From positions 263,376,001 to 263,440,000 of the forward strand of contig OZ024741.1 in assembly GCA_964016885.1 (NCBI GenBank): 64,000 nucleotides of DNA, in the 5' to 3' direction. Below the pieces are notes generated by a model. The model did not search any database, was not told where the DNA came from, and saw only the letters and a list, made by a program, of their open reading frames with translations. A program made the translations under genes and the position numbers. Source of the stretch: Eledone cirrhosa (Eukaryota). Of this stretch, positions 34,601 through 64,000 are shown piece after piece (the first letter of the stretch is position 1; every line of letters begins with the position of its first letter).

Positions 34601-37600
34601 CCCACACTGTAAATGTGGTTGGTGTTAGGAAGGGCATCCAGCTGTAGAAAACCCGCCAGACAGTCCTATGCGAGCAAGACAATCACTCTTGCCTCAAGTG
34701 GGAAAACCCCCGTCCAAACCCATGCAAGCGTGGAACACGGACGTTAAACGTTGATGATGATGATGATAGTGGTGGAACACTGGAAGGTAATATCCGTATT
34801 GGTAGAGCACTCAGTCCAAGGGACGAGTTAGGTAGAAGTGGTTACACAACAGTTAGTTCACCATACCGAGAACAATTGTTTCACGTTCGCAGATCTTCAG
34901 CAAAAATACACATCCCGAGCTGAAGATCCGCGAAGGTGAAACAATTGTTCTCGGTATGGTGAACTAACTGTTGTGTAACCACTTCTATATATATATATAT
35001 ATATATATATATATATATATAAATAAACCGGGTCTAGTTAGCTCTATATATATATATATATATATATACCCTCAGAGTTAGTTGCTGCAAATTAAAGAAT
35101 AACGAGTTACCTTTAGGAGATTTTCCACACTGTTAGCAACATCACTTGTTGTGTAATGGATTTTTCCACCAATCTAAAACAGAAATGAATTGGAAATATT
35201 GATTAGTCAATTGATTAATATTTTTTTAATGTTTCTTGTCTATACACAATTTTTTTTTTTTTTGGATCACACGCGCGCGCGAACGGAGACAGAGTCTCTA
35301 AAGTCTGTCTGAAGCCCGGTGACTCATCAGATTGGGTCTTACCCCAGTTTCCGACATGTTAAGAGACTGAAAGTACAAAACTTCCCCCCTGGAGAAGACG
35401 CCAGTCCATCGCAGGATAAAATCCCCAGCTGAGTATACTGGAGCAACGTAAGATAAAGTGTTTTGCTCAAGAACACAATACACAACGCAATTCAGGAATC
35501 GAACCCATGCCATTATGATCGTAAAGCCAACACCCTTACCACTAGGCCACACACCTTCACATACATATATACACATTATATATAGGTGACAAACTGGTGT
35601 GAATTATATGACAACTAACACACTGGTCAATGACGACACAATACTAATCATTCAATGTCTGTCCTGGCAAACGACATATCTGGACATTTTATACCTAGTA
35701 GAGCTCAACCCTCTTCCGGCTGGAACACTGCCTAGTTCTTATGAGAAAAGGACGGGGGCGGGGGCTGAAGAATCGACCCCAATATTGGACTGGTACTTTA
35801 TCAACTTCAAAAGGATGAAAGGCAAAATAAACAACAGCTAACACAAAATTTAAACCAAACAGGCATAGGTTCAAGGGAGATAACTGTATATGTAAACCCC
35901 CAATGTATTGTGAATTTGTGTGTAATGTATACATAATTCGTCTTGAAGCGAAAATCATTGAGGGCGGCGACTGAATCGAGGAGTTATTGTTTAATCCCAA
36001 AGGGCGGTGGATTATCAGCAAACGGTAGAGCGTCGGACAATATGCTCTGCGGCATATAGTTACGTTCCTTTACGTTCTGGTTTCAAATATCACCGAGGTT
36101 AGCTTTGCCTTTCATCCTTACTGGATCGATAAAAAAAAGTACCAGTAACGTACTGGGACCGATTTAACCGACCCCCTTTCCTCTACAAAAAATGTGGCCT
36201 TGTATCTAAATCAGAAACCGTTATTTAGTCCCAAATCAGCTCTGATCCAGCAAATTTATAAGGGAAGTAACCCTCGAAAAAGATAATTTAATTTCCTAAT
36301 TAAATATATATAGAATAAACTGTTTATAATAACTTATTGAATTTTCATAATTCCTTTTATTAAAAATGTCATGAAGACTCCACAATTATGTGTTGTTGCC
36401 GTTGTTTTACTATGGCCCTCTATTCAAGCATCTCACCCTCTTCCCAGTATCTTTACATAACAACCAACCAAAACACACAGTGTGTGTGTGCGCGCGTGCA
36501 AACTCACATAACTGAGATGTCAAAGAAGATTCAGGTTCGATCACCCCAGAGCTGATCGATATTGAAACAATTGTAATATGTAAATAAGGTTTCTACCCGT
36601 CCGTCCGTCCGTCCGTCCGTATATATATATATATATATATATATATATATATATATATATATATATATATATATATATATATATATATATATATATATAT
36701 ATATATATATATATATATATATATATATATATATATATATATATATATATATATATATATATATATATATATATATATATATATATATATATATATAGGC
36801 ACATGGCTTAGTGGTTAGAGCATTGGCCTTGCAATCGAAAGGTTGTGAGTTCAATTCTCAGACCGGGTGATGTGTTGTTTCCTTGAGCAAGACACTTTAT
36901 TTCACATTGCTTCAGTTTACTCATCTGTAGAAATGAGATGATAGGGAATGGGGTCCCTATCATTCCACTGCAAAGTGGACGTGTAGGCGCCACGGCAAAA
37001 AAGCACCCACCACTCACTGTAAATGAGGTTGGTGTTAGGAAGGGCATCCAGCTGTAGAAATCAAGCCAGAGTCAGTTCCCGTCCCACCCTTGCAAGCAGG
37101 GAAAAGCGGACGTAAAATGAAATGATGAAAATGATATATATATACTTTGTGGATTATTTTGTGTTTTGATAAGGGACCCAGTCCTATCATGTTGTTACAA
37201 CTCACAACAATGTAAGTTTAGCTGGTTTCCTCTGAGGTTGCATCTCATAAGGGGTCTCTTGGGTGTTTTAATGATAGCCCTGAGACTATCTTATGACCAT
37301 TTTTCCAGTGACAGGAAATGAACCCAGAACACACAGAACCAGAACAGATTCAGCAAAATATCTTGTGCAACACAAACAGTTCTCTCAATCTCTCACAGAT
37401 CTGGACCAGGACTTTATTCAGTGACCCCAAAAGGATAAAAGATACAGTTGACCATGGTAGGATTTGAGAGCAGAGAACAGAGGGCTATAGCAAATACTGC
37501 TAAGTATATAAATTGACAATTCTACTAATTCAATCAACACAATGCAAGAGTGGACTAAAAACCAGAAAATTGATCATCACCACCACTATCTGTTTTCCTT

Positions 37601-63833: not shown

Positions 63834-64000
63834 TGATCAAAAGAACATCTATTTTATTAATATTTGTATTTTAATATATATATATATAGGCATAGGTAAA
63901 ATATAACGTCCGGGAAAGTGAAACTAATTTTTATGACAAGTGAATGTGTTTGTTTTTTAGTATTGCTTGTGTGATTATTTTTTCTTTTTCTTTTTTTGTG

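Follow-up and report, generated by a model that had tools for sequence, protein, structure and literature searches.

Minimal type-I hammerhead motifs in the Eledone cirrhosa genome and their probable origin from 3' ends of Hydra-clade Penelope-like elements

Seven short motifs found in 64 kb of the Eledone cirrhosa genome (the whole stretch analysed, hereafter the window) are best explained as minimal type-I hammerhead (HHR) folds located in 3'-terminal regions within three Hydra-clade families of Penelope-like elements (PLEs). As for the short modules lacking open reading frames (ORFs), they most probably arose when those autonomous elements inserted into (TA)n tracts as 5'-truncated copies, in many cases head to head and inverted; the ribozymes are expected to cleave in dimeric form. 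The probability of this reading is put at about 85%. Cervera and de la Pena 2014 (PMC4209133) report that metazoan PLE repeats carry minimal HHRs, including opposite-strand pairs approximately 100-700 bp apart, and rate most single motifs as "probably related to truncated PLEs". Likewise, for PLEs Craig et al. 2021 (PMC8557442) describe a high rate of 5'-truncation, a 5'-truncated copy in inverted orientation, tails restricted to one end, targeting of (TA)n and the motifs of the Hydra clade. The architecture of inverted pairs with a one-sided tail has been on record for PLEs since 2014 and 2021.

Hammerhead motifs in the window

Both strands of the window were scanned with a pattern made of CTGANGA, a helix II of at least 2 bp, GAAA, 2-10 nt, a T followed by a non-G base, and a helix I of at least 4 bp. 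Seven matches were found, and no others; they are the same seven sites listed by the sequence-only reading, and were recovered independently of it. The mean number of matches expected by chance is 0.07, with a maximum of 3, as estimated from 100 first-order Markov simulations of the window. When helix II was required to be at least 4 bp and helix I at least 5 bp long, five of the seven sites were retained, and matches in the 100 simulations dropped to 0. The sites lost are 61294(+), a decayed copy of the 61006 motif featuring G.A in helix II, and 34915(+), in which helix II is just 2 bp long and has U/U on either side.

On the plus strand, cores start at 34920, 60582, 61299 and 63783, and cleavage is predicted after 34949, 60632, 61343 and 63821, respectively, that is, at the very positions at which RNA ends had been predicted. 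On the minus strand, cores start at 53145, 61055 and 61815, and cleavage is predicted 3' of 53107, 61011 and 61777, respectively. The catalytic core C3-U4-G5-A6-N7-G8-A9...G12-A13-A14, the A15.1-U16.1 pair and a non-G residue at position 17 are found at all seven sites. Helix III is limited to 2 bp, A15.1-U16.1 included, and is closed by AUGU, AUAU or AAUU loops. The last two are palindromic, the first near-palindromic, and all correspond to the loops (TATGTA, TATATA, CAATTG) noticed earlier. In five of six sequences folds score better than shuffles (z-scores from -2.1 to -3.9; -3.94 for the 60571 motif); the motif at 34915 (family C, see below) has a z-score of +0.49, and folds no better than its shuffles. 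Self-cutting of the seven motifs is a prediction drawn from the sequence. No match to the Rfam hammerhead families was obtained at the gathering score or at E<=10, either with the whole window or with 3.4 kb of it alone, by models which do not necessarily cover a minimal helix III. As previously reported, motifs lie close to (TA)n: the nearest run of at least 12 nt is found at approximately 35-150 nt at six of the seven sites, and about 290 nt off, beyond a nested SINE, at 60571.

The motifs fall into three sequence families, as the sequence-only reading had it. Family A includes the near-identical 53095, 61765 and 63771 motifs, plus 60571, which is 72% identical and may be regarded as a subfamily. 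Family B includes 61006 and 61294, family C the 34915 motif. The count of five sites with no ORF attached also stands, the remaining two, 61765 and 63771, flanking a reverse transcriptase (RT) fragment. Among 13 ORFs of the window compared with Pfam, the search identified only an RVT_1 domain, at 10296-11924, outside the hammerhead regions.

Truncated, inverted ends and their autonomous parents

For all three families, copies bearing ORFs could be located elsewhere in the genome. With the RT fragment of the window as query, 32,628 first-look candidates were obtained; 150 of them were scored, and all 150 match at E<=2.8e-88. In the family A parent, L001, the open frame is 750 aa long; DKT and YRDD are present, as is a VY..YIG nuclease motif lacking an internal CxxC, and a hammerhead lies approximately 2 kb 3' of the stop codon; the element spans about 4.7 kb, from an inverted fragment at ~6000 to the 3' end at ~1284. 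The frame of the family B parent, L083, is 867 aa long, shares 57% identity with L001 across 281 aa of the RT and stops some 1.2 kb from the hammerhead, and PLE ORF pieces were found in all five loci fetched for wide inverted pairs of this family. In family C, 5 of 20 copies chosen by their tail run into a nuclease ORF carrying CSCRKPEAC and IY..YVG, and the 3' UTR is short (~360 nt). A CxCX5C linker reads CNCRNKSNC in L002, a second family A frame, CNCRNPESC in family B and CSCRKPEAC in four of the five family C frames; in L001 the last Cys has been lost. The CX2-5CxxC type of linker had no match in the frames of the three families, and the GIY-YIG core has no CCHH motif, no CxxC being found from the Y to the YIG motif in any of the three. 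Both family A frames have DKT, and L002 reads RWR rather than RWK; the N-terminal part of the family B frame is unreadable for the RWK/DKT comparison. YRDD, FLDV..PFHKPN and VY...YIG...R..NH are present in both the 750-aa and the 867-aa frame, and resemble by eye the Hydra alignment as printed (PMC8557442). Since Pfam gave nothing significant with these two ORFs, assignment to RT and nuclease rests on the motifs, the printed alignment and the lead provided by the Atlas, in which the nearest clusters (scores 0.96-0.98) carry HTH_animal, DUF8422, GIY-YIG and RVT_1. On these sequence grounds, the three families are classified as 3' ends of autonomous Hydra-clade PLEs, and location of minimal type-I hammerheads in Penelope-type terminal regions, as initially proposed, is upheld.

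In the window, family C is represented by two inverted arms. The long arm (34768..34901, minus strand) is the 3' end of a Hydra-clade PLE, and has a one-sided 66-nt tail (34768-34833) which adjoins (TA)n and has been conserved in almost all 37 other copies compared. In this arm the hammerhead is cut off just 5' of the core, and the 5' strand of helix I is consequently missing. The short arm (34906..34986, plus strand) has a complete hammerhead at 34915-34954, and terminates with CCACTTCT, next to (TA)n at 34986-35021. A tRNA origin of the 66-nt tail was considered and discarded, as there is no Rfam tRNA match there. The first family A arm (52960..53181, minus strand) carries its hammerhead at 53157-53095 and has a tail (52960-53057) about 100 nt long. 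It is flanked by (TA)n at 52942-52959, and by an inverted partner arm (53178..53231, plus strand) which consists of the last 54 nt of the element (90.7% over 54 nt), lacks the hammerhead, and is followed by (TA)n at 53216-53237. The 60481..60913 region (plus strand; the 5' limit is approximate) is a 5'-truncated 3' end of the L001-type family A subfamily, in which a hammerhead (60571-60643), a nested SINE (60666-60808) and a tail (60816-60913) precede a (TA)n run at 60931-60956.

Family B forms an inverted pair, with 216-nt arms 97% complementary spaced by 13 nt. The short arm (60955..61170, minus strand) has no tail and carries a hammerhead at 61060-61006; the long arm (61184..61486, plus strand) has a hammerhead decayed in helix II (61294-61348) and a tail of about 97 nt, and is followed by (TA)n. 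The tract at 61495..61626 is a (TA)n target with a 46-nt foreign fragment between its two runs (61495-61536 and 61585-61626). Next comes a family A arm (61627..61846, minus strand) with a tail at 61627-61720 and a hammerhead at 61827-61765, joined head to head to a 5'-truncated family A copy at 61830..63880 (plus strand); the inverted repeat found here has 123-nt arms (98%). The latter copy includes an RT fragment with YRDD (open frame 61830-62351), and similarity to the L001 protein extends up to 62603. About 0.8 kb, nuclease-coding in other copies, are missing at ~62601; an AT-rich 3' UTR follows, with a hammerhead at 63771-63833, and (TA)n at 63875-63888. The whole 2.1-kb composite at 61.6-63.9 kb was considered as a replicating unit, and rejected: three loci with similar spacing differ in the length of the inverted arms, and lack the RT fragment.

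Most ORF-less modules are head-to-head inverted pairs in which one arm has an extra tail, 66 to about 100 nt long, on one side only, and the outer ends adjoin TA runs both in the window and in the copies fetched. At first sight such modules might be taken for MITE-like remnants of DNA transposons targeting TA, the hammerhead-like string being fortuitous. Near-perfect inverted repeats with TA flanks, the ordinary fold of the family C motif and the failure of Rfam to detect hammerheads fit this notion, above all for the 34.8-kb module. Yet, arms are unequal and the tail one-sided, the centre varies from copy to copy, and arms continue into the RT/nuclease ORF; moreover, the U...U residues flanking helix II in family C are arranged as in 14 of the 26 published Hydra-clade HHR rows (PMC8557442). 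A MITE-like origin seems hardly credible.

A second notion, put forward by the sequence-only reading, sees the short modules as retrozyme-like units in their own right: discrete, non-autonomous, transcribed and self-cleaved, with the PLE RT mobilising them in trans. Non-LTR retrozymes of animals (Cervera and de la Pena 2020, PMC7229834; Li, Clavereau and Pollet 2026 preprint) consist of units of approximately 150-450 bp, repeated head to tail in tandem, from which circular RNAs are produced. Similarly to the modules, they lack ORFs, are AT-rich, carry a type-I hammerhead, co-occur with PLEs and share sequences with PLE ends; a 2026 preprint (10.64898/2026.07.22.740005) argues that animal retrozymes derive from PLE terminal repeats. 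Short copies are many (1,574 first-look candidates for the family C palindrome), and in runs X1-X3 (contigs; the kind of run is unrecorded) summed contig depth over the terminal ~150 nt is 30-100 times that over the body. Ends recur: 12 of 20 family B arms start at one and the same base (CATATG), and three further family A copies begin at the internal break of the window copy, which could mark discrete short subfamilies.

Against discrete units, copies chosen regardless of arm length form a continuum running into ORFs. Family C had been sketched as a palindromic element of ~150 nt starting at ATACACATCCCGAG, because the palindromic query used for the first sample picked look-alikes. In 20 copies chosen by the tail alone, ten arms measure 93-176 nt, two 230-243 nt and eight at least 399 nt (up to >427 nt), which rules the sketch out, and 38 family C copies differ in their centre junction. 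Arm length varies in family A as well: in three more inverted pairs it is 165, 381 and 548 nt, vs 126 nt in the window. Similarly, the idea that family B is an element of ~320 nt with a fixed 5' end was weakened by the 3 of 20 arms which extend past the common start, and was dropped when extension led to ORF-bearing copies. Upstream homology suspected in the family B copy L044 amounted to TA runs only. In contrast to the tandem repeats of non-LTR retrozymes, modules in the window are inverted pairs or single truncated ends: Tandem Repeats Finder, run on the window, placed none of the seven motifs in a tandem direct repeat, and pairs from one family in direct orientation are separated by 3.2 kb.

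The retrozyme-like interpretation thus fails for the modules, because they are 5'-truncated copies with varying junctions and arm lengths, of families which each continue into an RT/GIY-YIG ORF assigned by motifs. The outcome named beforehand as refuting it, modules being plain truncation products of autonomous elements, is the one that copies point to; as an account of the modules, retrozyme-like mobilisation is judged improbable. A different answer applies to the genome as a whole. A hammerhead-bearing tandem repeat of 457 nt x 8, a candidate of the retrozyme type, is found elsewhere, at many other loci, and to this extent the suggestion that the species hosts retrozyme-like elements is partly upheld, though not for the modules named in the window.

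How truncated inverted ends may arise can be envisaged from the model of PLE insertion in the literature. A TA repeat would be nicked by the GIY-YIG nuclease, and the 3'-OH thus released would serve as primer for reverse transcription, with the AU-rich 3' end of the element RNA as template. Reverse transcription would mostly end early, and use of the other strand, or a switch of template, would yield a second copy in inverted orientation. Junctions of inverted copies plausibly prefer TA-like or palindromic sites, such as CATATG. In dead fragments the hammerhead would be a passenger; in intact or tandem copies it may process longer transcripts, with the palindromic loop of helix III holding two motifs together.

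Covariation and the mismatch in helix II

Covariation across copies, set in advance as a test of the hammerhead assignment, was assessed in 28 distinct genomic variants, ascertained by the core and loop III only. Helices I and II covary. Paired cells are 84.1%, vs 68.6% in shuffles, and the covariation score is 0.544, vs 0.271; none of the 500 shuffles reached either value. Slid controls are 29-51% paired. Both sides changed in 12 of the 20 pairs overall; for helix II the count is 7 of 8, for helix I 5 of 9. Core columns are invariant, in a set itself selected on the core, and the 2-bp helix II of family C, considered separately, does not vary informatively.

The fourth position of helix II makes a standard pair in none of the 28 variants. 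An invariant C is opposed by C, A or U, and in no variant by G; the pairs on either side covary. The 10.1-11.1 pair is AU in 9 variants, GC in 9, GU in 9 and other in 1, so that no conserved G-C is seen; no unpaired base is found between positions 9 and 10.1 in families A and B, and helix I may be up to 12 bp long. One may speculate that Hydra-clade PLEs of the E. cirrhosa genome carry an HHR subclass of their own, in which a minimal palindromic helix III accompanies a long helix II with an obligatory non-pair at the fourth position. The mismatch would be under selection, serving for instance as a docking site for the RT/nuclease or the dimer, and would be tied to a clade expanded to tens of thousands of copies. 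We regard this scenario as rather unlikely.

Relation to known elements

The motifs resemble the minimal HHRs of metazoan PLEs (PMC4209133). Shared features are the type-I topology, the CUGANGA...GAAA core, a long helix II, a tiny helix III with a palindromic loop, location at PLE termini, many consensus families per genome, compensatory changes, and opposite-strand pairs along with copies mostly solitary and truncated. The motifs described here differ in having no unpaired base 9/10.1 (families A and B), no conserved 10.1-11.1 G-C, a helix I which reaches 12 bp, and a fourth helix II position which is never a standard pair.

The elements resemble in turn the Hydra clade of PLEs endowed with a C-terminal endonuclease (EN+) (Craig, Yushenova, Rodriguez and Arkhipova 2021, PMC8557442). 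DKT (in the family A frames), YRDD and the CxCX5C linker, a GIY-YIG motif without CCHH, insertion into (TA)n, a hammerhead approximately 100-200 nt from the 3' end, inverted 5'-truncated copies, the one-sided tail, and the U...U flanking of helix II in family C, already mentioned, are in common. In contrast, families A and B are about 4-4.7 kb long with 1-2 kb 3' UTRs, vs <3 kb for the published clade; tails measure 66 to about 100 nt, vs 30-40 bp; helix III has 2 bp and a 4-nt palindromic loop, vs 3-4 bp closed by 1-3 nt in 26 of 26 Hydra-clade rows; and copy number, judged from the first-look candidates, is very high. The three core strings are absent from the part of the supplement of the same paper that was compared, which is weak evidence for the suggestion that the families are uncatalogued.

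For the most part, the picture already known is confirmed: hammerheads ride in PLE ends, and most copies are dead, truncated, inverted, and embedded in TA microsatellites. For annotation, caution is suggested by the finding that palindromic modules of 150-400 nt resembling a discrete family can be an artefact of a palindromic query. What is added is an animal genome in which the little-studied Hydra clade, and not Neptune, Poseidon or Naiad, supplies abundant hammerhead-bearing fragments, a helix II mismatch which is conserved, and evidence that Hydra-clade elements may carry a minimal hammerhead, of the predicted dimer type, in place of the closed helix III published for the clade.

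Motif recovery and covariation

Seven hammerhead sites, located at 34915(+), 53095(-), 60571(+), 61006(-), 61294(+), 61765(-) and 63771(+), had been claimed by the sequence-only reading. All seven, and no others, are recovered on both strands of the full 64-kb window by a relaxed descriptor (CTGANGA, helix II with 2 or more bp and one tolerated mismatch, GAAA, 2-10 nt, U then non-G, helix I with 4 or more bp). The same descriptor yielded a mean of 0.07 matches, and a maximum of 3, in 100 Markov simulations, and its predicted cleavage positions coincide with those predicted earlier (34949, 60632, 61343 and 63821). 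A stricter descriptor, without matches in 100 simulations, retains 5 of the 7 sites. It drops 61294(+), where the 61006 motif is present in decayed form, and 34915(+), in which helix II is 2 bp long and flanked by U and U. The U...U flank of the latter, the family C motif, is not a defect, because it is found in 14 of the 26 Hydra-clade rows of the supplement table of Craig et al. 2021 (PMC8557442), as far as consulted. Rfam reported no hammerhead at gathering score or E<=10, even searching 3.4 kb alone. Single-sequence folding recovers helices I and II in families A (53095, 61765, 63771 and the 60571 subfamily) and B (61006 and 61294), with z from -2.1 to -3.9, but not convincingly in family C (z +0.49).

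Covariation, the absence of which the sequence-only reading had named among the outcomes that would refute it, is present in an alignment of 28 distinct hammerhead variants, collected from all fetched genomic loci by the core plus one of four loop III words, helices I and II being not required. When the hammerhead structure is imposed, 84.1% of cells are paired versus 68.6% in partner shuffles, and the covariation score is 0.544 versus 0.271 (0/500 shuffles as high in either case); the sequences share ancestry, and the shuffle figures are therefore not probabilities. Sliding the partner by 1-3 columns left 29-51% paired. Changes on both sides affect 7 of 8 pairs in helix II and 5 of 9 in helix I, and a separate script, run on 25 variants, agrees. 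The fourth position of helix II (alignment columns 20 and 49; window 60592/60621 and 63793/63809) is a standard pair in none of the 28 sequences, being C.C in 20, C.A in 3 and C.U in 2 of the 25 typed variants; its neighbours covary, switching among AU, GC, UA and CG.

Parent elements and clade assignment

All three families are multi-copy across the 3.0-Gb assembly; copy counts refer to first-look candidates, and are not censuses. For the 3' end of family A, 40 of 181 first-look candidates were scored, and the 46 matches share 96-100% identity with it. The YRDD reverse-transcriptase motif lies in the open frame at 61830-62351, which has no Pfam match and returned 32,628 first-look candidates in the genome; 150 were scored, and all 150 matched at E<=2.8e-88. 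A 750-aa frame is found at locus L001, and frames of 636, 426 and 380 aa at other loci. In L001 a family A hammerhead of the 60571 type follows the ORF stop at a distance of ~2 kb on the 3' side. L002, L003 and L004 also have family A hammerheads or 3'-end sequence: L002 and L003 host the 63771 type, while L004 has 3'-end homology but no hammerhead scored by the scan. Compared to L003, the window copy is missing a nuclease-coding stretch of ~0.8 kb, and everything that precedes the RT motif region on the 5' side.

Family B (44 matches; 162 first-look candidates, 40 scored) has a similar parentage. Three of 20 arms run past the start common to most copies, and the extension is itself abundant (1,681 first-look candidates, 40 scored). 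Loci reached through it contain pieces of Penelope-like element (PLE) ORFs in 5 of 5 cases; one of them, L083, has an 867-aa frame that shares 57% identity with L001 across 281 aa of RT. Family C counts 80 matches (1,574 first-look candidates, 40 scored). In 38 copies retrieved with the palindrome itself as query the centre junction varies between copies. This sample has the look of a discrete ~150-nt element, a notion discarded since in 20 copies selected by the 66-nt tail only, arms range from 93 to at least 399 nt (93-176 nt in 10, 230-243 nt in 2, at least 399 nt in 8). In five of these 20 the sequence leads into a nuclease-like ORF with 29-30% identity to L001 residues 495-733 (E 1.5e-25 to 1.8e-28).

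Family A frames contain DKT, and PLE frames YRDD and a CxCX5C linker (CNCRNKSNC, CNCRNPESC, CSCRKPEAC); no CX2-5CxxC was found in the frames scanned, and CxxC is missing inside their GIY-YIG-like core. These motif features, together with a hammerhead and insertion into (TA)n, define the Hydra clade in the consulted text of Craig et al. 2021 (PMC8557442), and by eye the frames resemble the Hydra alignment printed in its supplement. Pfam did not detect RT and nuclease domains in the PLE frames; in the protein Atlas, L001 is nearest to clusters with HTH_animal, DUF8422, GIY-YIG and RVT_1 (scores 0.96-0.98). Elements in this genome are however longer than the under 3 kb published for the clade. 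Helix III differs as well: in families A, B and C a 4-nt palindromic loop caps 2 bp, as in the minimal hammerheads of other PLE clades, whereas all 26 Hydra-clade hammerhead rows in the consulted supplement table have 3-4 bp capped by 1-3 nt. None of the three core strings is present in the consulted part of that supplement.

The window hosts further repeats. At 14718-15596 (-) lies what is left of the nuclease region of another Hydra-like PLE, with 30-33% identity to the L001 protein; a different retroelement, with a 542-aa open frame and an RVT_1 domain (E 2.8e-22), occupies 10296-11924 (+). A 57-nt satellite (1-5203; 91.6 copies, 95% identity) runs off the window start, and a 48-nt minisatellite (32589-33820; 25.7 copies) underlies a minus-strand open frame of 404 aa. 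The 8-kb TGG-rich minisatellite at 42362-50700 (periods 45 and 51) is open in all six frames; ACC-rich arrays of complementary composition follow at 54336-58027, with a strong GC-skew switch between the two.

Paired insertions next to TA runs

Each outer end of the PLE arms in the window adjoins a TA run. Arms are arranged head to head in family B (60955-61170 with 61184-61399; 216 nt, 97% complementary, separated by 13 nt) and family A (61716-61838 with 63760-63882), and only one arm per pair carries an extra tail, of 66 nt in family C and ~100 nt in the other two families. This layout fits published PLE descriptions, among which, in the consulted sections of Cervera and de la Pena 2014 (PMC4209133), min-HHR pairs on opposite strands ~100-700 bp apart, and single motifs "probably related to truncated PLEs". 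Frequent 5' truncation, an inverted 5'-truncated copy, one-sided tails and (TA)n targets are reported in Craig et al. 2021 (PMC8557442). In three more family A pairs, spaced like that of the window, the inverted arms measure 165, 381 and 548 nt; each pair therefore arose by an event of its own, rather than as a copy of a single composite. The arm at 60.5 kb has a SINE nested inside. SINE copies, with a tRNA-like 'GTTCAAATCCCGCC' segment, lie at 60400-60480, 60666-60808 and 58449-58828; one is that nested in the 60.6-kb PLE arm, and the SINE also flanks several fetched loci. A 46-nt fragment between two (TA)n runs (61538-61583), related to sequence beside TA runs in loci L017 and L026, may be the end of another TA-targeting element.

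By analogy with the PLE literature, the GIY-YIG nuclease would nick (TA)n, target-primed reverse transcription would start at the AU-rich 3' end and terminate early, and a second, inverted copy would then be made. Twelve of 20 family B arms start at one identical base within CATATG (window 61177), some pairs being perfect palindromes centred on it, and three further family A copies begin at the internal break of the window copy, 62601. Such recurrent 5' boundaries could alternatively mark short subfamilies, which we regard as improbable; they may rather be favoured joining sites or template-switch hot spots.

Hammerheads in the window fragments are passengers. Those of intact or tandem copies are predicted to cut as dimers joined through their palindromic loops III, a mode put forward in the consulted text of Cervera and de la Pena 2014 (PMC4209133), at which time in vitro activity was low.

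Retrozymes and known PLE patterns

Animal non-LTR retrozymes are described, in the consulted parts of PMC7229834, as tandem repeats of ~150-450 bp with type-I hammerheads and circular RNAs, and are derived from PLE terminal repeats according to the portion consulted of a 2026 preprint (10.64898/2026.07.22.740005). No tandem array in the window contains any of the seven hammerhead motifs. The short ORF-less modules lack the tandem arrangement of these described retrozymes, and of the sequence-only reading the Penelope-type assignment stands, but not the retrozyme-like interpretation of the modules.

The broader claim, that the genome hosts retrozyme-like elements, is partly borne out by other loci. 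At L003:1-3640 (G000:C1:156435000-156438640) a 457-nt unit, each copy with a type-I hammerhead motif, makes up a head-to-tail array of 8.0 copies at 99% identity. The unit, which exceeds the 170-400 nt commonly given for retrozymes, has 189 matches (1,394 first-look candidates, 38 scored), and forms head-to-tail arrays at many loci, with adjacent inverted arrays at some. The genome therefore hosts a retrozyme-type repeat, though outside the window. The hammerheads of families A, B and C belong to the already known PLE pattern, of which they are new members.
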